DNA from: Escherichia phage ECO319P1
DNA: 64,000 bases
Sequence record: OP172790
Direction: 5' to 3' (one strand)
Shown here: one piece after another, positions 2,763 to 46,613 of the stretch
How the letters are laid out: every line of letters begins with the position of its first letter
How positions within the stretch are numbered: the stretch's first letter is position 1
The notes under the pieces: generated by a model
What the model saw: the letters and a program-made list of their open reading frames with translations, nothing else
Database searches by the model: none
Told to the model about the DNA's origin: nothing
Position numbers and translations under genes: made by a program

Positions 2763-2774
2763 ACTACGGTGACG
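2763..2774 (+). repeat. copy 1 of over-represented 12-mer ACTACGGTGACG (intergenic)
   Basis: exact match. Confidence 0.9.
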
Positions 2775-2802
2775 GGCTTTATTGGTAGCATTGGAGGATT
2801 CG

Positions 2803-3180
2803 ATGGCACGACTGACTAAGGCGCAACGTTCTGAACTGCGTCACGTTCGCAATGAAGCATTCAAACGTAACAATATCAAAGGCGCTCAATCTCGCCACCC
2901 TGATAAACCTGTCACTGAGTATAAGCGACGGGCTAATTGTGTACGTCTGGAAAGCGACAAGGCACGACGTCCAGATAAAAGTAACGTTGTCTTTGGTGAT
3001 GTTGAGCCGCCGTCTGAAAAGCCAGACACTAACATTGAATCATTCCGCAACGCTTTCAGTGATAAGCTGGCAGCATTGGGTTGGACTCGTGACGATTGGG
3101 CTTTGTGGAAGCAAGCACGTAACGATAATCCGTCTTTAACTTTGCACGACTATAGAGAATCATTAAAGGTATCAAAATGA
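2803..3180 (+). CDS. hypothetical protein
   Basis: start moved to ATG 2803 preceded by GGAGGA; track ORF began at an upstream TTG. Confidence 0.5.
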   Translation: MARLTKAQRSELRHVRNEAFKRNNIKGAQSRHPDKPVTEYKRRANCVRLESDKARRPDKSNVVFGDVEPPSEKPDTNIESFRNAFSDKLAALGWTRDDWALWKQARNDNPSLTLHDYRESLKVSK

Positions 3181-3359
3181 GTAAGGCCGCACACATTGGC
3201 ATGACTGAGAGCGCACTAGACCGCCGTGAACGTCTGCTTAACGCTTACACCAAACCTAAGCGCCCTGTGAGTGAGAACGTTCGCATCAACAACGAAAACC
3301 AATACACGACTCGTAAAGAGTACGCCACCAAAAATCAAGCGTTCGGTGCTGTATGGTAA
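3177..3359 (+). CDS. hypothetical small protein
   Basis: ATGA overlap with upstream gene. Confidence 0.4.
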   Translation: MSKAAHIGMTESALDRRERLLNAYTKPKRPVSENVRINNENQYTTRKEYATKNQAFGAVW

Positions 3360-3502
3360 ACTATAACGTTGGTCATTTTGATACAGAGAAAATGTCTCTG
3401 AAAGAATTTGTCGCCTATTGCAAGGCGCAAGACTCAATCCACACCTGCCCGACTCGTGAAGTTGCTGAGTTAGGCGCAATCATTGAGGCGTTAGGTTACT
3501 AA
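3353..3502 (+). CDS. hypothetical small protein (49 aa)
   Basis: ATG overlapping upstream stop; under 60 aa. Confidence 0.3.
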   Translation: MVNYNVGHFDTEKMSLKEFVAYCKAQDSIHTCPTREVAELGAIIEALGY

Positions 3503-3621
3503 TGGCTACTCGTAATTCAGAAGTTACTACGGTGACGGCTCGCGTGGTGTCTGGTGTGCTGTCGTTGTCTGCATTCGGTGCGTTCTTTGGTCTGCTGATT
3601 GGTGGATTCATTGGACTTTGA
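3502..3621 (+). CDS. small single-TM membrane peptide (39 aa)
   Basis: hydrophobic C-terminal half; contains 12-mer copy 2. Confidence 0.3.
   Translation: MATRNSEVTTVTARVVSGVLSLSAFGAFFGLLIGGFIGL
3526..3537 (+). repeat. copy 2 of 12-mer ACTACGGTGACG
   Basis: exact match, read as T-T-V-T. Confidence 0.9.
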
Positions 3622-3801
3622 CAAGCATATAAAGCTCGCTGATTTGATGCACGAATCGACGGGCTTTGCTCATTGTGTCGTGCAGCGTGGTGGCGAGTTG
3701 AAAGTGATTGAACATCGTCGTCATAAAAATAAACCTGTACACGGTGTTGTGTACTCGTCTAAACTTGGCAAGGAGAAGCGGGAATTTTTGAGAGGTAAAT
3801 A

Positions 3802-4062: not shown

Positions 4063-4283
4063 ACGAAATGCGTATTCCATTACCGTATTATCTCGAAGAG
4101 AAAGAAATTACAGACATTGAGGACTTGAAAGGTACTCGTGTTCTGTACCGTTACCACCGTCAAAGCCGTAAAGTATACGGTAAAATTGACCAATTTTCTT
4201 TCAAAACGGGTAAGGCTTATGTGCTGTGGGAAGATGGTAAACAGCAATGGGTTTGTGCTGTATCTCTTGAGGTAATCGTATGA
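4059..4283 (+). CDS. hypothetical protein
   Basis: ORF overlapping upstream stop. Confidence 0.4.
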   Translation: MNEMRIPLPYYLEEKEITDIEDLKGTRVLYRYHRQSRKVYGKIDQFSFKTGKAYVLWEDGKQQWVCAVSLEVIV

Positions 4284-4687
4284 AGAAGCAATTTGTTAAG
4301 TCAATGTTAATCGCATTGACTATCGCCGGTTGTCACCCTGTACCAGCCAGTGCGTCCCCATTAAAGGGAGAGATGCGCGAGATGGCTCTTGAGTTGTGCG
4401 CTAAGTCTGTCGCTGCTAATGACCTGATGCTTGAGTGCATCGAAATGGTGAGCAGTGACTACTATGACGCCGCCATGCAGGGTGGTCAACGTGTGCTTGA
4501 CAAGCGCATTCCCTCTGACAACGAGATTGTGGCTATCACTCGCCAACATCTTGACTGTGATGTTGCTAGTCCAATCTGTCAGCAAACGCAATACAACTAC
4601 ATGACGTGGTTCAAGTATGGAGCCATGTCTATTATGGACAACGACAAAGAGTTTAAGAGCGAAGTTAAAGCTTATTACTCTGAATGA
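4280..4687 (+). CDS. putative lipoprotein (early)
   Basis: N-terminal signal with lipobox LTIAGC; Cys-rich mature part. Confidence 0.5.
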   Translation: MKKQFVKSMLIALTIAGCHPVPASASPLKGEMREMALELCAKSVAANDLMLECIEMVSSDYYDAAMQGGQRVLDKRIPSDNEIVAITRQHLDCDVASPICQQTQYNYMTWFKYGAMSIMDNDKEFKSEVKAYYSE

Positions 4688-5662: not shown

Positions 5663-6163
5663 ATGTTAGCTTCTGATGTGCCATTCAACACTGTAATAAT
5701 TAAAATGGGTGAGAAGATTAAGAATGCGAACAATCGCCACCTTGTCTTTGATTTTACTGTCGCCCAATTTCAGCGTCTCTTTGTCCGTGGCACCTGTGCT
5801 TACAGTGATAAAGAGTTTCAGAGTACGTCTGATATGACTATTGAACGTCTCGACCCACTAATCGGTTACGTGCATGGTAACTGTGTACTCGTGTGTAACA
5901 GGCTGAATCAGTTACGCAAGCCAATTGATGAATTCCTCAAAGACGTTCGCGTTGACGACGAGGATAAGATTCGCATGTTAGAGCTTGCACTGAAGACTGT
6001 TAAACGTCGAGTCGTTGAAGCTGGTCGTGCTGAACAAGAAGCTATCATGGCTAAACAAATCCGAGCGTCTAACCTCGCTGCGATGGCGAATGATATGAAG
6101 CGTAAGCGCTTTACTACGGTGACGCCCGCCAATGGAGAGTCCCCAAATGAATCATCATGCTGA
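5663..6163 (+). CDS. hypothetical protein with degenerate HNH-like motif
   Basis: segment YVHGNCVLVCNRLNQLRK resembles the distal half of an HNH motif; first His not evident. Confidence 0.4.
   Translation: MLASDVPFNTVIIKMGEKIKNANNRHLVFDFTVAQFQRLFVRGTCAYSDKEFQSTSDMTIERLDPLIGYVHGNCVLVCNRLNQLRKPIDEFLKDVRVDDEDKIRMLELALKTVKRRVVEAGRAEQEAIMAKQIRASNLAAMANDMKRKRFTTVTPANGESPNESSC
6113..6124 (+). repeat. copy 3 of 12-mer ACTACGGTGACG
   Basis: exact match, read as T-T-V-T. Confidence 0.9.
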
Positions 6164-9126: not shown

Positions 9127-10053
9127 ATGGAACATATCGCACTGTTCGGTGTGCTCGCTGTTGTACTCGTTCTGAGTATCGGCATTGACTTCTTTGGTCA
9201 CAAAGATGGTCACGAAATGTCGTTCAAAGAGAGTGCCATGTGGTCTCTGTTCTGGATTGCAATGGGCATTGGTGTTGGCGGCTTCATCTGGTTTGACTAC
9301 GGTGACGTTGCCGCTAGTGAGTACTTCGCTGGCTACGCAATGGAAAAGGCTCTGTCAATCGACAACCTGATGGTGTTCATGGCAATCTTTACGTTCTTCG
9401 GAATTAAAGATAGCGCTCGTGAGCATAAGATTCTGTTGTGGGGTATCGCTGGTGCATTGGTATTCCGTGGCATCTTTGTTGCTGCTGGTTCTGCCTTGTT
9501 CCATCTGTGGTGGCCTATTCAGGTATTCTTCGGTCTGGTCGTAATCTGGTCGGCTCGTGGCATCCTTGGTGGTGGAGATGATGATGAAGAAGTGGACTTT
9601 AGCCAGAAATGGTTTGTACGTGCAATCAAGAAGTTCTATCCTGTTAGCACTGACAATACAACTTCTAAGTTTTTCACTCGCATCGGCGGTCGTCGCGCTG
9701 TTACTGTTATGTTCCTGTGCTTGGTCACTATTGAACTGTGTGACGTCATGTTCTCGTTCGATAGCGTACCGGCTGTTATCGGCGTAACCAAAGAGCCTGC
9801 ACTTATCTACGCAGCCATGATTATGGCAGTGCTGGGTTTACGTGCTCTGTTCTTCGTGTTAGGTTCACTGATGAAGCACCTGACCCGTCTCGACTTCTTT
9901 GTTGCGATTGTTCTGGTGTTTGTTGGTGTCAAACTTATCGCGGCTCCGTTCGGCTATGAGATGGACGCTATTAGTAGTCTGTGTGTAGTCCTCGGATTGC
10001 TGGGCGCTGGTGTGGTAACATCTCTGGCTTTCCCAAAGCGTGAAAGTTACTAA
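9127..10053 (+). CDS. terC: TerC-family integral membrane protein
   Basis: multi-TM with EKALSIDNLMVFMAIF signature; contains 12-mer copy 4. Confidence 0.7.
   Translation: MEHIALFGVLAVVLVLSIGIDFFGHKDGHEMSFKESAMWSLFWIAMGIGVGGFIWFDYGDVAASEYFAGYAMEKALSIDNLMVFMAIFTFFGIKDSAREHKILLWGIAGALVFRGIFVAAGSALFHLWWPIQVFFGLVVIWSARGILGGGDDDEEVDFSQKWFVRAIKKFYPVSTDNTTSKFFTRIGGRRAVTVMFLCLVTIELCDVMFSFDSVPAVIGVTKEPALIYAAMIMAVLGLRALFFVLGSLMKHLTRLDFFVAIVLVFVGVKLIAAPFGYEMDAISSLCVVLGLLGAGVVTSLAFPKRESY
9296..9307 (+). repeat. copy 4 of 12-mer ACTACGGTGACG
   Basis: exact match, read as D-Y-G-D. Confidence 0.9.
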
Positions 10054-13808: not shown

Positions 13809-14681
13809 ATGGTTTGGGCAGTTATTGAAAACCACAAAGGCCAACGGGAAGATTTCCGTAAGCCGTGCTTTGGTTTCATGTCCTACATTCATCAGTGGTA
13901 CGAAACTGACGAGTGGGACGACGAAGAGGACGATTGGGAATACGAATACCTTGAAGGTTTCGAACCCGCCGAACTCAACCTCATGCACTACTTCCCTGAT
14001 TTCCGCAACCATATGCCGAGTCAGGATTTGCCTGAGTTCCGTGAGAAGTATCTGCCTGTGCTGTTGGAAGCTGTGAAGCTTCTGCCTCAGTATTACTCGA
14101 ACGTTGAGTACACTGCTCCAACTGATAGCACTCAGGAGACGTTTACGTTCGCCCTGCAAGATGCGAACATGCAAACGACAATCATCGGTGCTATGATGCT
14201 GCGTAACATTGCTCAGTATTCTGGTATGCGTCGCGTGTTCCGTCTTTGCGTTGACGCTGGCCTTGACCCTGTAACCTGCTTCGTTATGGGTAACATGTAC
14301 AGCAGCAACTACTGCTCGTTTGGTGCTGATGCTGGTAAGTATCTGGCAAACCCTGTTCACTACGGTGACGAGTCAATCTTCCCAGATGAAACTCGCGCTT
14401 GTGATATCCAGGCGTTCATTGACGGTAAGCTCGGTCACATCTACCAAGGTGTGTGGGGCGATACTGAAAATGGTTATGGTCGTTATGGTGAGTATGACGG
14501 TGATACCGCACCTCGCTTTGAACGTACCGGTAATCGTTCAACCATCACTGACACTCTGCTGTTGGCTGATGATTACGTTGACTCACCATTGCTGATGGAT
14601 ATCGAAATCGGTGTTTGTTCATCGGCTCGCTTCAGTGATGAAGAGTTGATTGTTCTTGCTGGTAAAATTACTGGTAAATAA
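13809..14681 (+). CDS. hypothetical protein with acidic N-terminal tract (part of ligase cluster)
   Basis: 290 aa ORF; contains 12-mer copy 5. Confidence 0.5.
   Translation: MVWAVIENHKGQREDFRKPCFGFMSYIHQWYETDEWDDEEDDWEYEYLEGFEPAELNLMHYFPDFRNHMPSQDLPEFREKYLPVLLEAVKLLPQYYSNVEYTAPTDSTQETFTFALQDANMQTTIIGAMMLRNIAQYSGMRRVFRLCVDAGLDPVTCFVMGNMYSSNYCSFGADAGKYLANPVHYGDESIFPDETRACDIQAFIDGKLGHIYQGVWGDTENGYGRYGEYDGDTAPRFERTGNRSTITDTLLLADDYVDSPLLMDIEIGVCSSARFSDEELIVLAGKITGK
14359..14370 (+). repeat. copy 5 of 12-mer ACTACGGTGACG
   Basis: exact match, read as H-Y-G-D. Confidence 0.9.
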
Positions 14682-18565: not shown

Positions 18566-20536
18566 ATGTGTGGGATTGTTCTCGCTGGTGGTAACTTAAT
18601 CGCTCGTGATGTTGAACTGTTCGGTCGTCTACTGTATGCAGATATCGTTCGTGGTGAGCATTCAACGGGTGTGTTCGCAGGGTTTCGTCCTTTTGGTCAT
18701 GACCCAATCCTGAAACTTCGTAAAGCCGCTGTTCCGGCAGATATCTTCTTACGCCGCAAAGAGTTATGGGGTGAAGTGCGTGAACACGCAGTTCCTTCAA
18801 AGACTGTTGCAAATTCTTTCACAACTGCCTATCCGAAATTTATGGTAGGCCACAACCGTTATGCAACTCAGGGTGCAATTAACGATACGAACGCTCACCC
18901 GTTCAACCACGGTAAAATCACTCTGGTTCACAATGGTACATTGACTGACCAGTCTCTGCTCCCAGACCATAAGAACTTCGCTGTTGACAGTGAAAACGTC
19001 GCATGGTCAATCAACAAAATCGGTATTGATGAAACTATTCAGAAATTGAATGGTGCATTCACTCTGGTTTGGCATAACGCCGAAGACAGCACGGTGAACA
19101 TCATCCGTAACGAAGAACGTCCATTCCATCTGGTTGAAACAACTGGTGGTGATTGGTTCGGTGCTTCGGAAGAAGACATGCTTCTGTGGTTAATTAACCG
19201 CAAGAAGTTTGCTCCAACAATCAAACGTCACTTTGAATGTGAAGTAGGTGTTCAGTACGTCTTTGACGTATCCGAAGGCTTCAAGTTCAAGGAGGAACGG
19301 AAGCATACGCTTCCAACCTTTCGCTCATATTCCTACACTGGAAGAACTGGTGGTTATTGGTATGACCAGTGGGATGATGACTATGGGTACGGAAACGGAC
19401 GAGGAACTTCAACAACTTCTCGCAACCAATCCAATAGCCAGAGCTTTAGCTCAAGCTCTTCTAGCGTAACACCGGACAGCCGTTACAAGCAGTTCAATGA
19501 TATGCTGGAAAGCCACGGCATCAACGTCAAAATGGGTGAGCAACTCCGCTTCGAGAGCTTCCAGTTTGACCAGTATCCTAAGTCTCTGGGCAAGGGTAAA
19601 ATGACCGGGTATACTGGCACTGGCGAGTATATTGAGGTTCAGGCTCACGGCACTGATATGGGCATCTTTGTTGAAGGTGCTGAGTACGATGGTAAGATTA
19701 TCTCGTGCTATGAGCAGAATTACATTCTGACAATTATCGTTCAAGACCCAAAACCTGCTCATGTTAATCAGACACTGACCCTCGGTGATTTGGTTAACTC
19801 GGCGGCAAAGGAAACTCCAATTCCTGATACAGGGATTAGTCAGGAAGAGTTGAACGAAGAGTACTACGGTGACGAGGAAGAAGACGACGGCAACGAAGTC
19901 GAAGTAACCTTGAACGGTGAGGTGTACTCAAAAAAGGAATGGGAGGGAAACGACTCATTAAATACTTGCGCAAACTGTTCCTCTCCAATCCCCTTCGACG
20001 ACGTGATTGATACGGTTGTCGATAATGGCGCTGCATTCTGCCATGATTGCGCAAAGCATTACAACCTGTTACCCCCTGAGACGGAGGAGCCAATTGCTCC
20101 TAACCGTTTCGTCTGCCAAAGCTGTGCCAACGAATTGCCGGAAGATTTAGAATCGGCAAAGCCGGGTGTCTGCATTCCTTGTCTTTGCGCTGTAACTAAA
20201 GACAACAATACGGAAATGGCACGTCAACAGTTAATCGAAAAGTACGACCGTTGGGAATCCAATTTGATGCCAGAGGAAGTGGTCACTCCACTGCTTCCGA
20301 AACCAACTGAAGTCTCTCTCGGTGAAATTTCACTGATTCGCAAGAAGTTGAAAAACAACTTGCTGGTTACTGTTAAGCAGTGGATGAAGATGAACAACTG
20401 TGGTTGGTGTCAAAAGCCAATCCAGTGGGTTGATGCTGAAGCCACTGAATTTGTTGGTCAGCAGCCATGCTGTCCGGGATGCTCCAAGAAATTAGAGATG
20501 GGCATCCTTCCAAAACCTATCAATAAGGATAAATGA
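18566..20536 (+). CDS. class II glutamine amidotransferase (Ntn) domain fused to Ser-rich linker and three C-terminal zinc ribbons
   Basis: MCGI N-terminal nucleophile, GHNRYATQG, VHNGTL; CxxC pairs in the C-terminal 200 aa; contains 12-mer copy 6. Confidence 0.7.
   Translation: MCGIVLAGGNLIARDVELFGRLLYADIVRGEHSTGVFAGFRPFGHDPILKLRKAAVPADIFLRRKELWGEVREHAVPSKTVANSFTTAYPKFMVGHNRYATQGAINDTNAHPFNHGKITLVHNGTLTDQSLLPDHKNFAVDSENVAWSINKIGIDETIQKLNGAFTLVWHNAEDSTVNIIRNEERPFHLVETTGGDWFGASEEDMLLWLINRKKFAPTIKRHFECEVGVQYVFDVSEGFKFKEERKHTLPTFRSYSYTGRTGGYWYDQWDDDYGYGNGRGTSTTSRNQSNSQSFSSSSSSVTPDSRYKQFNDMLESHGINVKMGEQLRFESFQFDQYPKSLGKGKMTGYTGTGEYIEVQAHGTDMGIFVEGAEYDGKIISCYEQNYILTIIVQDPKPAHVNQTLTLGDLVNSAAKETPIPDTGISQEELNEEYYGDEEEDDGNEVEVTLNGEVYSKKEWEGNDSLNTCANCSSPIPFDDVIDTVVDNGAAFCHDCAKHYNLLPPETEEPIAPNRFVCQSCANELPEDLESAKPGVCIPCLCAVTKDNNTEMARQQLIEKYDRWESNLMPEEVVTPLLPKPTEVSLGEISLIRKKLKNNLLVTVKQWMKMNNCGWCQKPIQWVDAEATEFVGQQPCCPGCSKKLEMGILPKPINKDK
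19863..19874 (+). repeat. copy 6 of 12-mer ACTACGGTGACG
   Basis: exact match, read as Y-Y-G-D. Confidence 0.9.
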
Positions 20537-27054: not shown

Positions 27055-28854
27055 ATGTCAAAAGTATACGGAGCTAAACGGATTATCGGTGACTCACCTT
27101 GCCCAACTTGTACAGCGGCAGGTCGTGACAGAACCGGTAATCACTTGCAACACTGGATTAACGATGATACAGGCGAAGAGTGGGTTTATTGCGGACGTGA
27201 TGGTTACTATGAAAAGGTAACTGATGCAAACCGTGCTGACCTTGAATCTGTTCGTCATGTTCATCGTGAATTAACTGATGAAGAACGTGCAGCGGTTCTC
27301 GCTGAGGTTGACGAGTTGCCAATTCAGGAACTCACATCTCGTGGTATCCGAAAGGAAATCGCTGAACGTTATGGTGTTCGTGTTGGCCTGTCCAGCACTA
27401 ACCGTGAACAAATCTCTCACTTCTATCCGAAAGAGAAAGATGGTGAGGTGGTCGCTTATAAAGTTCGTAGTCTTGAGCCGAAGTATTTCTATGCGGTTGG
27501 TTCAGGTAGCGGATGTGATTTCTTTGGCATGTCTCAGGCTCGTCTGGGTGATGTGTACAGTGGCAAACTGTTCGTATTCGAAGATGAACTGAGTGCAATG
27601 TCAGGTTTCCAAGCTCTCATTGACGCATCCAAGTCAACTTACAAACCAGCATGTGTGGCTTTGCCAGATGGTGCAGGTTCGGCAGCAAGTGCATTTGCAC
27701 GTTGTCGTCAGTTTGTTGAGTCATTCCAAGATATCGTGGTCTGTATGGATAACGATGAAGCGGGTGATGATGCAGTTAACAAGCTGAGAGCGATGTATCC
27801 AAACATCAAGATTGCTCGTATTCCGAAGGGTATCTACGGTGACGGTAAGCATATCAAAGACGCCAATGACATGATTATGGCTAAGCGTTCTTTGGAGTTA
27901 AACAACTGCTTACGCTTCAATGCTGCAAAAGAATCTCCAGCAGGTTCAACAACTGTAGCGGAATGTATTGAAGATGCGCTGAAGAAACCTGAATGGGGTC
28001 TGAGTTATCCGTGGAAAGGTCTTACTGACTTAACCTTTGGTTTACGTTATGGTGAGGTGATTGCAATTGGTGGTGGTGTAGGTGGTGGTAAAACATTACT
28101 GGCACACGAACTGAGTGCTCACTTAATCAACGTTCACAAAGAGAAAGTTGGTGCATTCATGTTGGAAGAAACTGTAGGTAATACCATCAAGAACATTGCT
28201 GGTAAATCTGCAAATATTCCATTCCATCGTCCAGATGCTGAGTTCGACCCAGAACTGCTGAAAAGCGAAGCACTGAAATACGATGGTCACTTGTTCCTGT
28301 ATCGTAACTTCGGTCAAAACGATTGGGAAGATATCAAACGTTGTATGCGTTTCTGGGTTGTTGAACATGGTGTCAAGTTCATCTTCCTCGATAACATCAC
28401 AGCATTGGTATCACACTTGACAGCAACTGAGATTAACACTGAAGTTGCGAAGATTGCTGTTGAGTTGGCAGGTATGTGTAACGAGTTGGACTTCACTTGT
28501 TTTGTATTTAGCCACTTGAACCCACCGAAAGGTGGTGCTCCTCACGAGGAAGGTGGTCAAGTACAAGAGGTGCAGTTCACGGGTTCCCGTGCTCTGATGC
28601 GTTTCTCTCAGTTAATTCTGGGCTTTGAACGCAACAAGCAGGCAGATGGTGATGCTCGTAACCTTTCTCAGATTCGTCTGTTGAAAGACCGTAACTTCGG
28701 GCAGACAGGTCTTGTACCAACATCTTATAATCCAGTGACAGGCCGCTTAACACAGCGTCGTGATGAAGATTATGACCCGAAAAATCCGTTCCGCTTACCG
28801 GGTGAGCATGAGGACGACATGCAGGAAGATAATGGAAAGGATAAACCATTTTGA
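27055..28854 (+). CDS. bifunctional primase-helicase (T7 gp4-like)
   Basis: N-terminal Zn-binding Cys cluster, Toprim acidic motifs (FEDE, MDNDEAGDD), Walker A GGGVGGGKT. Confidence 0.85.
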   Translation: MSKVYGAKRIIGDSPCPTCTAAGRDRTGNHLQHWINDDTGEEWVYCGRDGYYEKVTDANRADLESVRHVHRELTDEERAAVLAEVDELPIQELTSRGIRKEIAERYGVRVGLSSTNREQISHFYPKEKDGEVVAYKVRSLEPKYFYAVGSGSGCDFFGMSQARLGDVYSGKLFVFEDELSAMSGFQALIDASKSTYKPACVALPDGAGSAASAFARCRQFVESFQDIVVCMDNDEAGDDAVNKLRAMYPNIKIARIPKGIYGDGKHIKDANDMIMAKRSLELNNCLRFNAAKESPAGSTTVAECIEDALKKPEWGLSYPWKGLTDLTFGLRYGEVIAIGGGVGGGKTLLAHELSAHLINVHKEKVGAFMLEETVGNTIKNIAGKSANIPFHRPDAEFDPELLKSEALKYDGHLFLYRNFGQNDWEDIKRCMRFWVVEHGVKFIFLDNITALVSHLTATEINTEVAKIAVELAGMCNELDFTCFVFSHLNPPKGGAPHEEGGQVQEVQFTGSRALMRFSQLILGFERNKQADGDARNLSQIRLLKDRNFGQTGLVPTSYNPVTGRLTQRRDEDYDPKNPFRLPGEHEDDMQEDNGKDKPF

Positions 28855-31038: not shown

Positions 31039-31044
31039 GTAATA

Positions 31045-31070: not shown

Positions 31071-31088
31071 CTATACAAGGAGTGTATA

Positions 31089-33429: not shown

Positions 33430-33816
33430 TTTTGCACCATGAAGTCTGGCATAGCACCACAGATTGCTAATGCTTGGCCTCAAGTCCGTGAAGTCGATAA
33501 GTTGACTAACTACGGTGACAAGGATAAGATGGGTTCATACTCACTTGCCACTGTTCCCGAAGGTTTTGTGTTCAACATCTATGGTCAATACCATTGGAAT
33601 CGGAGAAACGCTGGTTATGGCACTTCTTATGAGCATCTTGGGATGGGGCTGTCTAGCGTCGCTGACTTTATGGTTAATCATAAGGTTCAAACTTTGGGTC
33701 TGCCTCGAATTGGTTGTGGACTTGCTGGAGGCGATTGGGGGATTGTAGAACACCTAATCAAACACCACTTTGCACACACCGACATTGAAGTAATTGTCTA
33801 CGAACTGGAGAAGTAA
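33346..33816 (+). CDS. macro domain protein
   Basis: KLTYKKGCLIAALKNKEVEAIAHQAN aligns with the macro N-terminal G...AN motif; start placed at ATG 33346. Confidence 0.65.
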   Translation: MKLTYKKGCLIAALKNKEVEAIAHQANCFCTMKSGIAPQIANAWPQVREVDKLTNYGDKDKMGSYSLATVPEGFVFNIYGQYHWNRRNAGYGTSYEHLGMGLSSVADFMVNHKVQTLGLPRIGCGLAGGDWGIVEHLIKHHFAHTDIEVIVYELEK

Positions 33817-36027: not shown

Positions 36028-36369
36028 ATGCCTAGCTCTCCGGGATACGTCCGCAATTATAAACAAGAACGCTTGACAGCCATTAAACGCGGTGAAACAA
36101 GCGTAGGTGCCAAGTCTAAGGATGCAATGCGACACAAAGCTCGTCGTCTTGTTGAGAAACGACTTGGTAAGAAGTTGCCAACATCAGTTCAGGTTGACCA
36201 TAAGAAAACACTGAAATCTGGTGGTGGTAATACGAGTTCAAACTTACGAGTCCGTGATGCACATAGCAATATGTCGGCGGGTGGTAAGTCAGGTTCTCGT
36301 GCTGGTAAGGCTGCTGGTGGTCGCAAAGGTGCTAGCAAACGTTTACCGGTAAAGAAACCTAGCAAATAA
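36028..36369 (+). CDS. basic protein with HNH-like segment
   Basis: VDHKKTLKSGGGNTSSNLRVRDAHSN; Lys/Arg-rich. Confidence 0.4.
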   Translation: MPSSPGYVRNYKQERLTAIKRGETSVGAKSKDAMRHKARRLVEKRLGKKLPTSVQVDHKKTLKSGGGNTSSNLRVRDAHSNMSAGGKSGSRAGKAAGGRKGASKRLPVKKPSK

Positions 36370-37137: not shown

Positions 37138-38973
37138 ATGGAAATCACATCAAGCTGGGACAAACCGTTCCAACTCGAACAGAAAGTGGCTCACATTATT
37201 AGCCAACAAGCAAAGCATGGATGCGACTTCAATAGTCGTAATGCTCATTGGTATGTTCATCTGTTAACTGAACGTATCATCAACATTGATTTGCAGTTGG
37301 TTCCAACTCTGCCACCTATGATGCACAAAGGCACTGAATACAAGGCTCCGTTCAAGATGAATGGTAAGCCGAAGGTGTTTGTCCAGAAGTATATGGACGC
37401 TCAAGGTCTGACAGAGGATATGGTAGGTGGCCCGTTTACAGCGGTGTGGTTTACCCCGTTCGACCCAAGTAAAACTTCACGTCTAAAAGATGTGATGTTG
37501 GACATGGGGTGGATGCCTACTGAATGGAACCAGAAGAAGATGCCGTTTCAACTTTGGACGTATAAAAAGCGTCTGGAGAAGACGACCTTCCGCAAGTTCA
37601 TGGAAGAGCAGACAAGTACCGACGAACGTGAACTATTTCTTCCCTTAGTTAATGGTTTTGTTGCTCAACATTTTGTTGGGAAATCAAAAGGTTACATGAA
37701 AGCAATCCTCAGTGCTCTGGGGTTTGATTTAAAGCGTGTACCGAATTTTGACCAGATTAAGAAGCGTCTTTTGTTGAGTCAGTTCTGGCCGACTTCTCCA
37801 AAAATCACTGAAGATTCATTTGAGTCAGTAAGTGAGGAAGAAGGTCATTCACTGAAACTCCTGAAAGAGCGTATGGTGTGGTCGCACCGTCGTTCACTGA
37901 TTCAGGGTTTGATTGAACTGACTCGTCAGGATGGTAAAATCTCTGGTGAAGCTAACCCATGTGCAACTCCGACAGCACGTATGAGACACAAGGGTATTGT
38001 AAACATTCCAGCCGCAGGTGCTCCTTTCGGTGAAGAGTGTCGCTCATTGTTCCGTGGTAATAAACGTACTGGAACAAAAGCAAAGATTATTCATAAACTT
38101 ACTGCACAGATGGTTGAATCTGGTAAGTTTCGTCGTAAACCGTTCACTAATATCATGCAGGTTTCAAATGGTAAAGGTGGATGGGAAGACGAAGGTCATG
38201 TATCATTCCTGATTCCAGCGGGGCAAGATGCTTTCGTTGGTGGTGATGGTGCAGGTCTTGAACTTCGAATGTTGACTCACTACCTGATTGCAGTATCCAA
38301 AATGCTTCTGAAAGACGCTGAGGAAGCGGGTAATGATAAGTTAATCCGTTACTACGGTGCCGCTTTACAGTCAGCATATGAGTATCGTGAGGTTCTTCTG
38401 AATGGTGATATTCACAGTCACAACCAGAAGCTCGCAGGTCTGCCAACTCGTAAGTCAGCTAAGACGTTTATCTACGCATTCTTATATGGTGCTGGTGATG
38501 CGAACTTGGGTGGTCAACTTGGTGCAGGCCGTGAAGAGGGTGCAGCTTTACGTGCTCGATTCTTGAAAGAATGTCCTTGTATTCCAGTTCTGATTGAGTG
38601 GGTTCAGGATTTTGCCAAGAAGAATGGTTGGGTTCCGGCAATTGATGGTCGTAAACTTATCATGCGTCGTGACCCTTTCAGTGGCGAAGTTATGGCTCAC
38701 AAAGCACTGAATACAATGTTACAAGCAGCAGGTTCAATCGTGATGAAATATGCAGGTTGTTATCTGACTTCTTGGAATGCTCGTGATTGCTTAGATGCAC
38801 ATCAGGTTATCATGATGCACGATGAATATCAGTTCACTTGCAAATGGGAAGATGTTGAAGCTTTACGTCGTAACATTGACTCGTGTGTTAAGAAAGCTGG
38901 TGAATATTTGAAAATGGAATGTCCATTAGCGTCTGACTCAATGTTAGGTGCAAACTGGCTTCATACCCACTAA
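37138..38973 (+). CDS. family A DNA polymerase, polymerase domain only (T7 gp5-like)
   Basis: motif A DGAGLELRM, motif B KTFIYAFLYGAG, motif C HDEYQF. Confidence 0.85.
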   Translation: MEITSSWDKPFQLEQKVAHIISQQAKHGCDFNSRNAHWYVHLLTERIINIDLQLVPTLPPMMHKGTEYKAPFKMNGKPKVFVQKYMDAQGLTEDMVGGPFTAVWFTPFDPSKTSRLKDVMLDMGWMPTEWNQKKMPFQLWTYKKRLEKTTFRKFMEEQTSTDERELFLPLVNGFVAQHFVGKSKGYMKAILSALGFDLKRVPNFDQIKKRLLLSQFWPTSPKITEDSFESVSEEEGHSLKLLKERMVWSHRRSLIQGLIELTRQDGKISGEANPCATPTARMRHKGIVNIPAAGAPFGEECRSLFRGNKRTGTKAKIIHKLTAQMVESGKFRRKPFTNIMQVSNGKGGWEDEGHVSFLIPAGQDAFVGGDGAGLELRMLTHYLIAVSKMLLKDAEEAGNDKLIRYYGAALQSAYEYREVLLNGDIHSHNQKLAGLPTRKSAKTFIYAFLYGAGDANLGGQLGAGREEGAALRARFLKECPCIPVLIEWVQDFAKKNGWVPAIDGRKLIMRRDPFSGEVMAHKALNTMLQAAGSIVMKYAGCYLTSWNARDCLDAHQVIMMHDEYQFTCKWEDVEALRRNIDSCVKKAGEYLKMECPLASDSMLGANWLHTH

Positions 38974-38982: not shown

Positions 38983-39156
38983 ATGCACGGATATGGTGAC
39001 AACAGAAAGGTAGACTGGATGTGGTGCTCTTGTAAGAAGTGCATGAAGTCCAGTAGCTACAAACTTTCAAACGACTACAAGGCTGAGAAGAAGCTCGGTC
39101 GTAGTAAAGCTCGTCAAATTGCTAAACAAGAATGTCAGGAGTTAAGTTATGAGTAA
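38983..39156 (+). CDS. small Cys-rich protein (57 aa)
   Basis: CSCKKC motif; under 60 aa. Confidence 0.3.
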   Translation: MHGYGDNRKVDWMWCSCKKCMKSSSYKLSNDYKAEKKLGRSKARQIAKQECQELSYE

Positions 39157-39951: not shown

Positions 39952-40333
39952 ACTAAGTAAGAAAGGTCAGGCTCTTCTGGCTACTCGTAAACAGGCACTT
40001 CAAGATGTGATTAATAAGTCCTTTGAGAAGATGCCGTTCGATATCACAATTCTCGCAAGTACAGTGCGTACTGAAGAGGAGCAACGAGCTAACATAGCCA
40101 AAGGTGTGTCTTGGACAATGAAGTCTAAGCACCTCACTGGAGAGGCCGTGGACATGGCTCCTTATCCGGTTGACTGGAACAACCTTGAACGGTTTGTACA
40201 GATGGCTGAAGTGGTTCTGACTACTGCCAAAGAAATGGGTATTCCCATTGTCTGGGGTGGTACTTGGAAAGAAACCACTGAAGGTTGGAAACAGAATAAA
40301 CGGTTCGATGGGCCTCATTTCGAACTGAAATAA
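39941..40333 (+). CDS. peptidase M15 (VanY-like) endolysin
   Basis: SKHLTGEAVD and DGPHFE zinc-binding motifs. Confidence 0.7.
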   Translation: MNVKLSKKGQALLATRKQALQDVINKSFEKMPFDITILASTVRTEEEQRANIAKGVSWTMKSKHLTGEAVDMAPYPVDWNNLERFVQMAEVVLTTAKEMGIPIVWGGTWKETTEGWKQNKRFDGPHFELK

Positions 40334-40355
40334 TTATTGCACATTATAATAAGAG
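40331..40355 (+). promoter_or_regulatory. phage promoter element (TAATTATTGCACATTATAATAAGAG)
   Basis: conserved element copy. Confidence 0.55.
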
Positions 40356-43738: not shown

Positions 43739-43746
43739 TCAAATAA

Positions 43747-43772: not shown

Positions 43773-43792
43773 ACCCAAAATTTGAGTGTATT

Positions 43793-44881
43793 ATGAAAAA
43801 AGAGCTATTTGCTGTTGATAAGAACGACAACATTAAACATTGGACTGTCGAAACTAATGGTGCTGAGATTATTGTCTGTCATGGACGATACCAAGGCAAG
43901 ATGCAGAAGAAAGTGACAGTCTGTAAAGCTAAGAATATTGGGAGGGCGAATGAAACAACACCCGAAGACCAAGCGATTCTGGAAGCAGAAGCTAAGTACA
44001 CCAAGCAAATCGACAAGTGCTATCGGGCGACTATTGAAGAGGCAAGACGAGTCGGTCAAGTCCTTCCTATGCTCGCTCATAATTTCCTTGACCACGGGCA
44101 TCGTATTAGCTTTCCTTGCTATGTCAGTGCTAAGCTGGATGGTGTACGATGCGTTGCAACTGTGGAAGATGGTGCTGTCACACTAACAAGTCGTGGTGGT
44201 AAGGAATATCCTTGCCCAGAGGCAATTCATGATGAACTGGTTCACCTTAGTTATCTCACTGGAATTACTAAGTTTGATGGCGAGCTTTATATTCATGGTA
44301 CGAAGCTTCAACACATTGTGTCGGCTGTTAAAAAACCTAACGACTTGACTCCGAAGTTGAAGTATTGTATCTTTGACTTACCGAACACTGATAAGTGGGA
44401 AGACCGTTGGTTAAAGCTCAAAGACATTAAGAATAAATATCGTCTTGACCACATGGAAATCGTTGATTGTATCAAAGTTGAGAACAAACTCTCAGCGGAA
44501 ATGATGCTTCACAAATACATGGGTCAAGGTTACGAGGGTCTGATGCTTCGTAATCTGGATGGGAAGTATGAATACAACCATCGTTCAGCAGATTTACAGA
44601 AGTGGAAAATCATGCAAGACCTCGAAGCCAAGGTAATTAGTGTTGCAGAAGATAAGAATGGTGAGGGTGTCCTGACTTGCCATATAGCGGGTGAACCCGA
44701 TAAAATCTTCGATGTTAAAATGCGTGGGACACATGAGGAACGTCTGGTTGACAATCAGAAGAAGTTGATTGGCAAGTGGATTGTTGTTATTTATCAGGCA
44801 TTTACAGAAGCAGGGTTGCCTCAGTTCCCGGTAGGCAGCCATGTCCGTGAATGTGATGAAGAGGGGAACCCAATTGAATAA
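43793..44881 (+). CDS. ATP-dependent DNA ligase
   Basis: motif I KLDGVR; 362 aa. Confidence 0.8.
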   Translation: MKKELFAVDKNDNIKHWTVETNGAEIIVCHGRYQGKMQKKVTVCKAKNIGRANETTPEDQAILEAEAKYTKQIDKCYRATIEEARRVGQVLPMLAHNFLDHGHRISFPCYVSAKLDGVRCVATVEDGAVTLTSRGGKEYPCPEAIHDELVHLSYLTGITKFDGELYIHGTKLQHIVSAVKKPNDLTPKLKYCIFDLPNTDKWEDRWLKLKDIKNKYRLDHMEIVDCIKVENKLSAEMMLHKYMGQGYEGLMLRNLDGKYEYNHRSADLQKWKIMQDLEAKVISVAEDKNGEGVLTCHIAGEPDKIFDVKMRGTHEERLVDNQKKLIGKWIVVIYQAFTEAGLPQFPVGSHVRECDEEGNPIE

Positions 44882-45197
44882 TGTAGCCGAAGGTGTTCTG
44901 AGAGAATTAGAACGTGCTGTAGCAATCGCAGAAGTTGATGGTGTTCATGAGAAAGTTGCTCTGATTACACTGTTAACTTCAGTGAAACGTGTTGTTCGTG
45001 AAATGCGGACTCACTCTACAACGTGTCCTTCCTGTGGTCAACCTAATATGGGTGCTCACTATTGTGTCGGTTCAATGCAAACTGCAAAGACTGGACTGAG
45101 GGATTTGCTCGGTAAAGAAGGTTATTATCGAGACAGTTCTGAGATACTCAAGGACGTTTGGCCCGGTTGTGATACGAGTAAGATTGGAGCTTGGTAA
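44841..45197 (+). CDS. hypothetical Cys-containing protein
   Basis: 118 aa ORF; start uncertain. Confidence 0.35.
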   Translation: MSVNVMKRGTQLNNVAEGVLRELERAVAIAEVDGVHEKVALITLLTSVKRVVREMRTHSTTCPSCGQPNMGAHYCVGSMQTAKTGLRDLLGKEGYYRDSSEILKDVWPGCDTSKIGAW

Positions 45198-45409
45198 TGG
45201 CTCGAAAACCACGTAAACCAAAAGTTAAACCGATTATCAATGTTTGGGACATGGATGAAGAAACGATTCAGAAGGTTATTACGCATCTGGAGAAGGATTT
45301 CCCGCTCTCAGGAATGTTAATCCGTTACAAAGCAGAGATTGGTCGTCGTAATGACGGCCTTTCCGTTGAAGATTTCTATAAAGTTAAGGAAGACGATGAA
45401 GATTTATAA
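45191..45409 (+). CDS. hypothetical protein
   Basis: 72 aa ORF. Confidence 0.35.
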   Translation: MVMARKPRKPKVKPIINVWDMDEETIQKVITHLEKDFPLSGMLIRYKAEIGRRNDGLSVEDFYKVKEDDEDL

Positions 45410-45953
45410 TGCCGGTCATATGCTTACCCGTGGTGCTCAGTTCCAACGTCAAGTTGAAAAAGATGAACTGAATAGTGTTGCTGATGATTTACAGTGGTAC
45501 GACCCGAAGGAAAATAAAGAAATCAACGATAAGGCTAATCTGGATAATAACGATGGACTCGCTGAGAAGATTGTTCGCCAAGACACAAATGCTCTGTTTT
45601 GGGCTGATACTGTGGTCATTGAGCCCCTACCTGAAGCTCTTGGAACTCATGTCGAACTCGGACAGCTCAAAGGCATGCGGGATATGGCGATTGCGATTGT
45701 TAATCTTATCAATAACGCTACCTCCGTCGATGATGCTTTTATGCAAATCGGTGCTCTCTGTGACAAACAAATAACTCGTTCTGTATACCCACACTATGAG
45801 GATATCCGCAGATTCAAAGGGGCGAATGAGTCCGAAGACCGTCGTTCTTGGGGTATCAATCAATATGTGTATGGTGTATGCCTTGACTTAACAGACGGTA
45901 AGGGTTTATACGACTGGAGCGAGGTTCTGAGGGAACTTAGCAATGAAGATTGA
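45396..45953 (+). CDS. nucleoside 2-deoxyribosyltransferase-like protein
   Basis: N-terminus MKIYNAGHM resembles the NDT-family start; AAGGA RBS 6 nt upstream of ATG 45396. Confidence 0.45.
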   Translation: MKIYNAGHMLTRGAQFQRQVEKDELNSVADDLQWYDPKENKEINDKANLDNNDGLAEKIVRQDTNALFWADTVVIEPLPEALGTHVELGQLKGMRDMAIAIVNLINNATSVDDAFMQIGALCDKQITRSVYPHYEDIRRFKGANESEDRRSWGINQYVYGVCLDLTDGKGLYDWSEVLRELSNED

Positions 45954-46347
45954 TATCTACCGCAAGAGAGAGGGGGAAAACGTCGTAGGCTTTCCTATGG
46001 CGTTTGCCAGAAAGGTTTATGAGGGTTGCCCCATTTTCCAACACCGGGATTTCTCCGAGTTTTTCTTTTCAACATCAATGACAATTCGTAATACCCTTCG
46101 TTGGGAGTACGTTGTTACAGATGATGATGGCAATGTGACGGCCTCTATGGCTGTCTACAAAGACTTTGATATGCATGTAGGCGAATGCCTTAGTGTATTG
46201 GTAGCGTTCAGCACAGACGACCACAGCTTGTTTAAAGCGTACCGTTGGTTGATGAAGCTGGCAAAAGAAGAGATGTGCCCTTTCGTAGCTTATACACGGA
46301 AGACTGGTGATTTTACAATGGATTTAGTTTACAGGAAGGTTTCATGA
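45943..46347 (+). CDS. hypothetical protein
   Basis: 134 aa ORF. Confidence 0.4.
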   Translation: MKIDIYRKREGENVVGFPMAFARKVYEGCPIFQHRDFSEFFFSTSMTIRNTLRWEYVVTDDDGNVTASMAVYKDFDMHVGECLSVLVAFSTDDHSLFKAYRWLMKLAKEEMCPFVAYTRKTGDFTMDLVYRKVS

Positions 46348-46613
46348 GCGCATTAGATACTATGGTAGGTGGTTCACATTATCAAGCTGAAGGTGGTATT
46401 CAGCCAATTCAGTTCTATCATGCAAATCCACAGCTTGACTTTCAACAGTGTAATATGATTAAATACGCATATCGACACAAAGATAAGAACGGTTTGCAGG
46501 ACTTACTGAAGGTTATTCACTATGCGCTGCTCGAAGCTGAGTTTGACTACGGTGACGACAAAGATAAGTTCGAAGCGTTTAAGGAGCAAGTACGTGGCCT
46601 CGTCAAAATCTAA
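46344..46613 (+). CDS. hypothetical phage protein
   Basis: 89 aa ORF; contains 12-mer copy 7. Confidence 0.4.
   Translation: MSALDTMVGGSHYQAEGGIQPIQFYHANPQLDFQQCNMIKYAYRHKDKNGLQDLLKVIHYALLEAEFDYGDDKDKFEAFKEQVRGLVKI
46546..46557 (+). repeat. copy 7 of 12-mer ACTACGGTGACG
   Basis: exact match, read as D-Y-G-D. Confidence 0.9.

Follow-up and report, generated by a model that had tools for sequence, protein, structure and literature searches.

Introduction

The genome of the Pseudomonas putida phage tf (Krylovvirus) carries localized single-strand interruptions with the consensus 5'-TACT/RTGMC-3' (Glukhov et al. 2012, PMC3517423). These were mapped by run-off sequencing, primer extension, and ligase-reversible fragmentation and are true, ligatable nicks; sites reading TACTGTGCC are nicked, a change of position 4 to C (TACCGTGAC) gives no nick, and G at this position was outside the variants assayed (PMC3517423). 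In Pseudomonas phage Rembedalsseter, strand-specific drops in nanopore coverage associate nicks with WACTRTGAC, which also occurs in 60 related Pseudomonas phages and, among 250 genomes, is not enriched outside this 61-phage cluster (Dougherty et al. 2025, PMC11780129). Strand-specific, sequence-associated nicks of virion DNA, also unexplained in function, occur in phiKMV-like phages (CGACxxxxxCCTA/CTCCGG) and in T5 and BF23 (R/GCGCRGG), although their sequences and lineages are unrelated to those described here. The nicks of phikF77 undergo repair early in infection and are introduced again late on, and nicking in T5 requires two genes, sciA and sciB, with nick-less T5 mutants being viable. 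Chi (GCTGGTGG) and the RfaH ops element (GGCGGTAGNNTG) belong to the short asymmetric words that are oriented with replication or transcription; Chi is a signal for the host RecBCD, and ops elements lie in operon leaders and are not scattered within genes. Neither has sequence similarity to the motif examined in this study.

We analyzed a 64-kb stretch of Escherichia phage ECO319P1 (OP172790), referred to below as the window. It belongs to Crifsvirus (Grimontviridae), a virus family other than that of tf, and shares ~88% identity with the Cronobacter phages A24 and GAP52; genomes of the ECO319P1 type are ~75 kb, and the host is an enterobacterium. The GAP52 genome is annotated with a RecBCD inhibitor. 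Our searches of the literature found no report of nicks in ECO319P1 or any member of the Grimontviridae and none of the motif outside Pseudomonas phages, and the Rembedalsseter study (PMC11780129) describes neither the motif of the Grimontviridae nor its G variant. On these searches, the Grimontviridae motif and its G form are new, whereas the tf-type class of nicked genomes, itself unexplained, was already known.

Results

A 12-letter word recurs in the ECO319P1 genome

The word ACTACGGTGACG ranks first among the 10-, 11-, and 12-mers of the window and occurs in eight exact copies, seven on the plus strand and one on the minus strand. A sequence-only reading had listed the seven plus-strand copies, all of which we recovered, and a single 11/12 copy at 27833, which is indeed present but is joined by two others at 33509 (..ACA) and 38351 (..GCCG). 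The same reading held that the minus-strand block contains no copy, and this was incorrect, given the exact copy at 61989. A conserved related variant at 4458 completes the set of 12 sites:

2763..2774, plus strand: exact copy ACTACGGTGACG, intergenic, with an ATG 40 nt downstream at 2803; a nick is predicted to fall between 2768 and 2769; unchanged in A24 and GAP52
3526..3537, plus strand: exact copy ACTACGGTGACG, 21 nt inside a small ORF (MATRNSEVTTVTAR...), T-T-V-T frame
4458..4469, plus strand: variant ACTACTATGACG in gene 4280-4687; holds TACTATGAC, the nick consensus in its LUZ24-type form; exactly kept in A24 and GAP52
6113..6124, plus strand: exact copy ACTACGGTGACG, T-T-V-T frame, close to the 3' end of gene 5663-6163; against A24 and GAP52, 0 differences in the motif and 15-17 in the flanks
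9296..9307, plus strand: exact copy in gene 9127-10053, a TerC-like membrane protein by the annotation of relatives, Y-G-D frame
14359..14370, plus strand: exact copy in gene 13809-14681, Y-G-D frame; also in GAP52
19863..19874, plus strand: exact copy in the glutamine amidotransferase gene 18566-20536, Y-G-D frame
27833..27844, plus strand: variant TCTACGGTGACG in the primase/helicase gene 27055-28854; every letter kept in A24 and GAP52
33509..33520, plus strand: variant ACTACGGTGACA, within gene 33313-33816, whose product weakly matches a Macro domain; GAP52 has the site and A24 has lost it
38351..38362, plus strand: variant ACTACGGTGCCG in the DNA polymerase gene 37138-38973; kept in A24 and GAP52
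46546..46557, plus strand: exact copy in the DUF3310 gene 46344-46613
61989..62000, minus strand: exact copy, sense orientation, in the late gene 60565-63522 for a 985-aa tail protein

Chance is excluded, given that 11 matches with at most one mismatch were found against 0.21 expected and that dinucleotide shuffles (n = 100), the control proposed with the original observation, reach at most 1. Searching with the degenerate core CTACKRTGMC brings the count to 12 sites, where 0.81 would be expected, and no shuffle reaches this count; with a third-order Markov background the motif is the top-scoring word in the window and in phages 7-11, PKM.Hi.22.6, Privateer, LAh_8, and tf. The full extent of the conserved word, Y-N-A-C-TACKRTGMC-G, is longer than the tf consensus.

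Selection acts on the nucleotide sequence

Conservation in relatives, a second check named at the outset, gave a clear result: between the window and A24/GAP52, 4 of 240 aligned motif positions differ (1.7%) versus 210 of 1635 in the 45-nt flanks (12.8%; Fisher P = 3e-9), so that changes across these three Crifsvirus genomes are ~7-fold rarer in the motif. Sites are also gained and lost. A24 lacks the copy equivalent to 14359 but has ACTACGGTGACA at another place in the gene matching 13809-14681, which indicates site turnover.

Nine of the 11 genic copies encode x-Y-G-D in one frame, while those at 3526 and 6113 read T-T-V-T and the copy at 2763 is intergenic, as originally described. This frame and the common use of the codons TAC, GGT, and GAC could be taken to mean that the repeat is a by-product of a recurrent Y-G-D tripeptide and preferred codons, or of chance or duplication. 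However, the bias toward the Y-G-D frame is largely explained by the third frame being impossible, because the motif there gives a TGA stop, and among the 12 Y-G-D tripeptides that the window's genes encode, 7 are spelled exactly TACGGTGAC versus 12% expected from codon usage (P = 1.7e-4). Two copies lie in the other frame and one between genes, the sequences flanking the copies are mutually unrelated, the fixed letters run past the three codons, and the shuffles fall far below the observed count. On these codon, frame, flank, and shuffle results we rejected the by-product explanation, whose probability is negligible. The motif is real and under selection as a nucleotide sequence, in agreement with what the sequence-only reading had proposed.

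Sister genera carry the nick consensus of phage tf

Whole or in part, ACTACTGTGACG is the most over-represented word in 7-11 (9 exact copies, with ACTACTGTGA occurring 14 times), in PKM.Hi.22.6 (7 exact copies), and in Privateer, which has 5 exact copies plus 2 of ACTACGGTGACG, the T and G forms being mixed on one strand. The top word of Aeromonas phage LAh_8, ACTACGGTG (9 against 2), is of the G form. ACTACTGTGACG includes TACTGTGAC, the main nick site of tf, and the sister genera bearing it carry the exact tf consensus; in extended form, the consensus in tf itself reads (C)TACTGTGACG. Of the 12 letters of the window motif, nine align with the tf site with one difference (TACGGTGAC versus TACTGTGAC), and the next letter is G in both. 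Measured against TACTRTGMC, one window site fits exactly (4458, TACTATGAC) and 11 read TACGGTGMC, in which position 4 has G in place of T; just 5' of the predicted cut, the letter at these sites is G, where tf has T. The window motif shares the A/C tolerance near the 3' end, the A-to-C change in the 38351 variant (..GTGCC..) being the one tolerated (M) in the tf consensus. The two forms also meet at corresponding sites: the positional orthologues of 46546 read ACTACTGTGACG in 7-11, where position 4 is T (mapped), and ACTACTGTGACA in PKM.Hi.22.6, and the apparent 7-11 orthologue of the gene start at 3526, a by-eye call (MATRNTTVTAR), likewise reads ACTACTGTGACG, the T/G difference being synonymous.

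The likeness extends to the genomes. Searches with tblastn in both directions between the window or its relatives and tf revealed a homologous backbone of the LUZ24/tf group, comprising amidoligase, GAT, ATP-grasp, primase-helicase, 3'-5' exonuclease, polymerase, 5'-3' exonuclease, endonuclease I, and virion proteins; terminase and portal are encoded beyond the window, and for these two genes the tf matches were taken from the complete A24, 7-11, PKM.Hi.22.6, and Privateer genomes. Gene order is the same in tf, running from the amidoligase/GAT cluster through primase-helicase, exonuclease, polymerase, 5'-3' exonuclease, and endonuclease I to a convergent late unit. On this sequence comparison, the motif is conserved across the virus family and is a one-letter variant of the motif nicked in a syntenic phage group.

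The 7-11 genome raises the question of whether the motif is instead the target of a site-specific base modification, 7-deazaguanine or methyl. Virion DNA of 7-11 contains 50 +/- 2 dADG per million nucleotides (PMC6884629), which amounts to 9.0 per genome and equals the 9 exact 12-mer copies, and its DpdA gene (gp032) adjoins gp033, a motif-holding gene for a deoxynucleoside monophosphate kinase. Yet among the genomes compared DpdA is present in 7-11 and PKM.Hi.22.6 only; the window, A24, GAP52, Privateer, and tf all bear the motif but have no homolog. In addition, across these genomes the motif is not accompanied by any methyltransferase, and the tf sites are true ligatable nicks. We therefore consider modification in place of nicking highly improbable.

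Sites follow the coding strand and cluster in the early/middle unit

All 12 window sites lie on the coding strand, 11 of them on the plus strand and one, in the late block with its opposite transcription, on the minus strand. Given that the minus-strand copy is sense inside its late gene, the rule concerns the coding strand and not the plus strand; the strand specificity first reported thus stands in this form, and the window's copies do not all lie on one DNA strand. A single late-block copy on the other strand is also found in A24, GAP52, 7-11, PKM.Hi.22.6, and LAh_8. When four Grimontviridae genomes are taken together, the coding strand carries 42 of the 42 sites in the early/middle unit. 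The late block makes up 34% of the length yet holds 4 of the 46 sites, a depletion with P = 6e-5.

As in tf, about a dozen copies per genome lie mainly on the coding strand of the early/middle unit (11 of 12 in the window, 12 of 14 in tf), densest near the start of this unit, and in the window density declines away from the early genome end. The sites of the Rembedalsseter group, which belong to the same motif family, are likewise mostly, though not in every case, on the coding strand and uneven along the genome; they are often at or near gene starts, whereas in the window two copies are at or just before gene starts, 10-11 of 12 are intragenic, and most are at relative positions of 0.18-0.90. 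In tf and Rembedalsseter, all sites are on one DNA strand, the convergent late unit included, whereas the late copy of the window is on the opposite strand, so nicks here would fall on both strands. The nicks of phiKMV, in contrast, are in the non-coding strand.

Such co-orientation could also arise if the motif acted in or after transcription, as an ops-like pause or antitermination element, a place where the phage ECF sigma factor pauses, or an RNA cleavage or protein-binding site. All 12 window copies and the 42 early/middle sites of the four family genomes are sense, and the length of 12 nt is that of ops. Nevertheless, the two late-unit sites of tf and a 7-11 copy at 27711 are antisense, and most sites lie deep in genes at arbitrary relative positions. 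Kuravirus phiEco32 has the same ECF sigma factor and transcription layout as the window, but a search for an enriched motif there found none, while tf has the motif and no match to the window's ECF sigma factor gene. We rejected an RfaH-type ops element, as copies are intragenic and, in tf and 7-11, partly antisense, as well as a promoter of the phiEco32 gp36-type ECF sigma factor, given the mostly intragenic copies, the lack of the motif in phiEco32, and the different repeat at promoter-like positions of the window. A role in or after transcription is accordingly very unlikely.

Candidate enzymes of a proposed nicking system

Three genes of the window bear on who might make or seal nicks:

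36028..36369, plus strand: 113-aa HNH-like protein, core VDHKK..GGxN..SNLR..N, candidate nickase
43793..44881, plus strand: ATP-dependent DNA ligase, by A24/GAP52 annotation and Pfam ligase domains on the L144 ortholog
47627..48064, plus strand: phage endonuclease I (T7 gp3 family)

The HNH-like protein is our best candidate for the nickase. Homologs occur in every motif-bearing lineage examined, including an unannotated tf ORF and all five motif-bearing small-genome IMG/VR loci, and were not found in ~35 motif-less ligase loci, 29 motif-less endonuclease-I loci, or Vibrio phage Phriendly. An AlphaFold model of the protein shows a beta-beta-alpha core, and its best Foldseek matches, none of them significant (best E = 0.2), are to HNH nucleases, a small HNH nicking endonuclease among them. 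Against this assignment, phiEco32 has a homolog (62% identity) and no enriched motif. The Privateer record has an in-frame stop within its homolog. Endonuclease I was judged unlikely as the nickase and is more probably a junction resolvase, and the ligase possibly seals nicks after infection.

Discussion

Our comparison suggests that the window motif is probably the recognition and cleavage site of a phage-encoded nicking system, specific for both sequence and strand and homologous to that of tf and Rembedalsseter. Since the motif is one letter off a sequence nicked in Pseudomonas phages, we infer that the ECO319P1 genome is probably nicked likewise. Two observations weigh against this reading: 11 of the 12 sites carry G at position 4, where a change to C removes nicking in tf, and the late copy lies on the other DNA strand, unlike the one-strand sites of tf and Rembedalsseter. 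When the motif is aligned with the mapped nick of tf, the predicted cut falls between letters 6 and 7 of the motif-bearing coding strand, ACTACG^GTGACG, and would leave a ligatable 3'-OH/5'-P nick. Nicking late in infection would yield packaged genomes with about a dozen nicks, which a phage or host ligase could seal after injection, and the placement of sites on the coding strand may keep nicks off the template strand of genes transcribed from the incoming DNA.

We considered that the same conserved phage protein could bind the motif in this lineage and leave it un-nicked, in another DNA-level role such as loading or entry of a recombination or replication protein or a checkpoint in packaging or ejection, nicking in tf being one outcome of binding. 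The changed letter directly adjoins the tf cut position, the function of nicks is unexplained even where they are proven, with T5 able to do without them, and the fall in site density away from the early genome end would fit an end-related process. Still, for a near-identical and similarly placed motif in a syntenic relative, the same biochemistry is the simplest reading, and among the proteins compared just nucleases track the motif, with no other candidate for a binding protein. We regard binding without nicking as unlikely and favor the nicking system.

More tentatively, and with some doubt, we propose that the nick system of tf may be an ancient trait of a larger group that includes the Grimontviridae of enterobacterial, Proteus, and Aeromonas hosts, in which the recognition word would have drifted genome-wide in concert between T and G forms, both present in Privateer. 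The nickase would be the small HNH-like protein, limited to this supergroup, and the coding-strand rule would exist since nicks in the template would stop newly injected DNA from being transcribed. Members that have DpdA, such as 7-11, might in addition place one 7-deazaguanine at each of these sites.

Occurrence of the 12-mer in the window

The seven exact plus-strand copies of ACTACGGTGACG reported by the sequence-only reading were all found where it had placed them. Its statement that the minus-strand block contains no copy was wrong, given that an eighth exact copy lies on the minus strand at 61989-62000, inside a minus-strand gene; the remainder of the observation holds. A scan of the window also located three one-letter variants and one related word:

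27833, plus strand: one-letter variant TCTACGGTGACG
33509, plus strand: one-letter variant ending ..ACA
38351, plus strand: one-letter variant ending ..GCCG
4458, plus strand: related word ACTACTATGACG, LUZ24-type form TACTATGAC

The window contains 11 matches with at most one mismatch, compared to 0.21 expected and a maximum of 1 in dinucleotide-preserving shuffles, and 12 matches to the degenerate core CTACKRTGMC, compared to 0.81 expected. ACTACGGTGACG is the commonest 10-, 11- and 12-mer of the window and also ranks first against a third-order Markov background. No relatedness was seen among the sequences flanking the copies; a pyrimidine, mostly T, is favored two letters 5' of the 12-mer (11 of 12 sites in the window and 34 of 46 in four genomes). 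Genes occupy the plus strand to ~48.5 kb and the minus strand beyond, and the plus-strand sites fall at 2.8, 3.5, 4.5, 6.1, 9.3, 14.4, 19.9, 27.8, 33.5, 38.4 and 46.5 kb. As the gene around the minus-strand copy is itself on the minus strand, none of the 12 copies departs from the coding strand.

Conservation and selection on the nucleotide sequence

The window is ~88% identical over nearly its full length to Cronobacter phages A24 and vB_CsaP_GAP52 (genus Crifsvirus, family Grimontviridae), whose records run in reverse orientation. Its plus-strand block carries early and middle genes, including NAD-salvage and Ter-like genes, an amidoligase/glutamine-amidotransferase/ATP-grasp cluster, a primase-helicase, a split DNA polymerase, an ECF sigma factor, a ligase and endonuclease I; the late structural operon is represented by its end, in the minus-strand block. 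Two open reading frames, at 25617-25973 (118 amino acids, with a DUF7448 match slightly under the Pfam cut-off) and 38983-39156 (57 amino acids), are without counterpart in A24, GAP52 and the other compared relatives and are lineage-specific insertions. Positions 1-1700 have a G+C content of 0.37, compared to ~0.46 elsewhere, and contain no long plus-strand open reading frames. This left end is probably an early-promoter or terminal region, given that the A24 match begins at window position 404, where the A24 record ends.

A24 and GAP52 each have seven exact copies of the 12-mer plus variants, and each copy is co-oriented with the surrounding genes. Across aligned positions of the 11 plus-strand sites, 4 of 240 motif positions in A24 and GAP52 differ from the window, compared to 210 of 1635 positions in the 45-nt flanks (Fisher P = 3e-9), and all four differences trace to one lost site. 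The one-letter variants are kept letter for letter in the relatives where aligned. Some turnover of sites was seen: A24 is without the sites at 14359 and 33509, with another copy present in its version of the 14359 gene, GAP52 is without 46546, and the late-block copy of both phages lies in a different gene than in the window. The genic copies are read in two frames, as had been proposed, with 9 of 11 encoding Y-G-D (xAC-TAC-GGT-GAC-G) and 2 of 11 T-T-V-T; the third frame contains a TGA stop. Y-G-D tripeptides in window genes are spelt TACGGTGAC in 7 of 12 cases, compared to 12% expected from codon usage (P = 1.7e-4), which excludes a Y-G-D peptide or other coding artefact as the source of the repeat. 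The substitution and codon tests both support the original claim that selection acts on the nucleotide sequence.

Relationship to the tf nick consensus

Related words are prominent in other members of the family. The top over-represented word of Salmonella phage 7-11 (Moazamivirus, Grimontviridae) is ACTACTGTGACG, with 9 exact copies, and ACTACTGTGA occurs 14 times there, 13 on the early/middle coding strand and 1 on the late coding strand. ACTACTGTGACG is also the top word of Salmonella phage PKM.Hi.22.6, where the 7 exact copies all lie on the early/middle strand, and of Proteus phage Privateer, where 5 exact copies share their strand with two of ACTACGGTGACG and one of ACTACGGTGACA. The top word of Aeromonas phage LAh_8 is ACTACGGTG (9 against 2). 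From these top words, the family-level word is ACTACKRTGMCG. The T form, ACTACTGTGACG, has no copies in the window by exact scan, and the window's G form is common to Lahexavirus. At one mapped common position, window 46546, the window has G and 7-11 has T; PKM.Hi.22.6 has T there, but its final letter is A. A site at the gene start at window 3526, judged by eye, is an apparent ortholog of a 7-11 site, and the T/G change is synonymous there.

The T form includes TACTGTGAC, the chief form of the sequence nicked in Pseudomonas putida phage tf. Virion DNA of tf carries 14 localized single-strand interruptions at 5'-TACT/RTGMC-3', mapped by run-off sequencing and primer extension, which are present in >90% of molecules and are reversed by T4 DNA ligase (PMC3517423). 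The tf record annotates them as sci1-sci14, and their extended consensus is (C)TACTGTGACG. In Pseudomonas phage Rembedalsseter, WACTRTGAC coincides with 13 strand-specific nanopore coverage drops; this word is enriched in 60 related Pseudomonas phages, and the 2025 survey did not see enrichment outside its 61 Pseudomonas phages (PMC11780129). Comparison with 7-11 shows that the window motif aligns to that of tf without gaps and differs in one letter (T/G), in place of an alignment as ACT, a 3-letter insert and GTGAC. The window variant ..GTGCC.. agrees with the A/C tolerance documented in tf. Taken from sequence comparison, the 12-mer is most likely the recognition site of a predicted strand-specific nicking system homologous to that of tf, and alignment with tf places the predicted cut at ACTACG^GTGACG, in the motif-bearing strand. 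Compared with the tf nick motif, the word is longer, has a T/G polymorphism beside the predicted cut and follows a coding-strand instead of a single-strand rule.

Genome architecture and strand orientation

On a smaller scale, tf is laid out like the window, with early genes followed by a COOH-NH2 ligase/amidoligase/GAT/ATP-grasp cluster and then primase-helicase, 3'-5' exonuclease, polymerase, 5'-3' exonuclease, endonuclease I and a convergent late unit; reciprocal tblastn confirmed the homology of these genes. In tf, 12 of the 14 nicks are in the early/middle unit on the coding strand, crowded near the unit start, and the window sites are arranged likewise. Crowding toward the early end reached P = 0.005 in 7-11, was borderline in the window (P = 0.06) and was not significant in tf (P = 0.16). 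Across A24, 7-11, PKM.Hi.22.6 and Privateer, the coding strand carries every one of the 42 early/middle sites, and the late block, 34% of the length, holds 4 of 46 sites (P = 6e-5). The late copies differ between the two groups. The two late-unit nicks of tf share the DNA strand of the others and are thus antisense to the late genes, whereas one late-block copy in sense orientation to the late genes was found for each of the window, A24/GAP52, 7-11/PKM.Hi.22.6 and LAh_8, with a different location in each of the four. The 7-11 late block has one extra, antisense copy.

We considered that the perfect coding-strand rule in the window could reflect a signal acting in transcription or at the RNA level. 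This reading is very unlikely given the antisense copies in tf and 7-11, and given that the nick-type word was not found in Kuravirus phiEco32, a phage that shares both the general layout and the ECF sigma factor; conversely, tf has the motif, and tblastn found no tf homolog of the window's sigma factor gene. We also rejected a role as a promoter or as a site for the ECF sigma factor, because phiEco32 has no such word and a different repeat occupies promoter-like positions in the window. That repeat, TAATTATTGCACATTA followed by taATAag, has these exact copies:

11156-11171, plus strand: TAATTATTGCACATTA
24916-24931, plus strand: TAATTATTGCACATTA
40331-40346, plus strand: TAATTATTGCACATTA
46710-46725, plus strand: TAATTATTGCACATTA
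1018-1033, minus strand: TAATTATTGCACATTA, pointing leftward

Its plus-strand copies lie in intergenic gaps, with a ribosome-binding site and start codon following ~15-25 nt downstream, and six matches at up to 3 mismatches were found, compared to 0.88 expected. It looks like a phage-specific, perhaps middle, promoter, and the related words ..ATGTGCAATAA.. and ..ATGTGGATT.. repeat in A24, GAP52, Privateer, 7-11 and PKM.Hi.22.6.

For the predicted nicks, we reason that, on freshly injected DNA that still carries its nicks, RNA polymerase would be hindered by a nick in the template strand but not by one in the non-template strand, and that late genes, expressed from replicated DNA, would leave site orientation in the late block free. 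The 42 of 42 sense sites and the mixed late orientation would follow from such hindrance. Nicks in phikF77 are repaired early and are back late in infection (PMC3517423); by analogy, those predicted here could be closed by the ligase of the phage (43793-44881) or by that of the host. It is unlikely that the same protein-DNA interaction serves a role other than nicking.

A further alternative is that the 12-mer marks sites of base modification by a DpdA-type deazaguanine pathway. Virion DNA of 7-11 contains 50 +/- 2 dADG per million nt (PMC6884629), which equals 9.0 per genome and matches its 9 exact ACTACTGTGACG copies, and the 7-11 DpdA gene (30787-31491) adjoins gp033 (deoxynucleoside monophosphate kinase), which carries one motif copy. 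The numerical match may be a coincidence. We rejected this explanation as highly improbable, given that the window and most motif-bearing genomes lack DpdA.

Distribution outside the family

The motif was not found in Vibrio phage Phriendly, which has a tf-like layout, and four other Kuravirus-like contigs had no enriched nick-type word within 20-kb stretches. Of 49 IMG/VR loci surrounding the COOH-NH2 ligase gene, only the tf/LUZ24-like ones were clearly enriched; large 7-11-like contigs had a few motif copies each in 20 kb. A search for an equivalent word in phiEco32 returned only words from the terminal repeats, a spelling conserved at gene starts and a weak 9-mer, GTAGTCCCT, with 5 copies compared to 0.15 expected, on one DNA strand across both transcription units:

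~65615, single strand: GTAGTCCCT
~64105, single strand: GTAGTCCCT
~43953, single strand: GTAGTCCCT
~17093, single strand: GTAGTCCCT
~15081, single strand: GTAGTCCCT
(phiEco32 record positions)

This word is poorly conserved across other Kuravirus loci and points only weakly to a different site in that group. Other dense repeats were seen in distant relatives among the IMG/VR contigs. The COOH-NH2 ligase contig L031 has 15 single-strand copies of GTCTGCTGC and 13+13 of the near-palindrome TAGTCTAGA in 20 kb, the latter being repeated also in L039 and L040, both COOH-NH2 ligase contigs. Strong enrichment of another word was seen in an unrelated marine phage contig with endonuclease I (L140), where CGTTTAAAC occurs 8 + 2 times by strand in 18 kb (0.11 expected).

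Candidate nicking enzymes

Phyletic profiling of all window open reading frames identified one gene present in tf and all Grimontviridae and not in phiEco32, namely, endonuclease I (47627-48064; Pfam PF05367). It is unlikely to be the nickase, and was rejected as the sole one, because close homologs occur in Phriendly and in 29 environmental loci without the motif and because it belongs to the T7 gp3 junction resolvase family. A better candidate is an HNH-like protein of 113 amino acids (36028-36369, plus strand), whose core VDHKK..GGxN..SNLR..N resembles a cysteine-less HNH motif. One homolog is named 'HNH nuclease domain-containing' in UniRef, and a homolog bears PF13392. An AlphaFold model (41 sequences, pLDDT 72) has a beta-beta-alpha core. 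Almost all of the best Foldseek matches to this model are HNH nucleases, the small Gme HNH nicking endonuclease among them, and none is significant (best E = 0.2). A sequence profile of the protein found nothing in the PDB.

The HNH-like family has only 246 records in the phage collection, from LUZ24/tf-like, Grimontviridae and Kuravirus-like groups. Among small-genome relatives, the gene is present in 5 of 5 motif-bearing loci and 0 of ~35 motif-less loci, and it was not found in any of the 29 endonuclease I loci or in Phriendly. Kuravirus is the exception, with the gene present (62% identity) and the motif absent; the putative catalytic pair is GH in phiEco32 and DH in 37 of 41 homologs. The tf homolog (59% identity) is an unannotated open reading frame at 16126-16416 that overlaps tf_29 (16115-16429) in another frame; tf_29 has been described as a membrane protein, and its annotation may be wrong. 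The Privateer homolog (44961-45338, minus strand) has an in-frame stop after residue 8 (MPSSPGYV), which could be a sequencing error, a pseudogene or a sign of a downstream start; its core GG is replaced (..KTSISESQNK..), and the annotation covers the downstream part only (gp065).

Nicking in T5 requires two genes (PMC3517423), and the motif was seen only together with both the HNH-like protein and endonuclease I, so the data also fit a two-component nicking system of these proteins. Given the few independent lineages, this is only a lead. Residues of the HNH-like protein co-varying with the T or G form gave nothing interpretable among the very few lineages, a reverse phyletic profile from tf proteins yielded no additional gene specific to motif-bearing genomes, and Pfam and PHROG scans of 30 conserved hypothetical proteins found no other nuclease.

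Significance

Knowledge of site-specific nicks in packaged phage DNA goes back ~50 years, to T5. We know of no function established for phage virion nicks and of no enzyme for the tf/LUZ24 group. The exact 12-mer had no match in the searchable literature, and a search for nicks in phiEco32-like phages or Grimontviridae gave only the tf paper and taxonomy or genome notes. With no such report, and survey enrichment confined to Pseudomonas phages, the window represents a predicted new case of an established phenomenon. Our analysis singles out one gene as a concrete candidate for the enzyme and offers a rationale for the strand rule that can be tested, and the natural specificity variants (T, G and A forms) would suit enzyme swaps. 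Phages 7-11, GAP52 and A24 are cultured isolates of well-studied enteric hosts, and some relatives are under study for biocontrol or as plasmid-dependent phages. Nicks at known positions would bear on the long-read sequencing, cloning and engineering of these phages. If the prediction is true, the nick phenomenon would widen from one Pseudomonas phage cluster to a family infecting Salmonella, Cronobacter, Proteus and Aeromonas.
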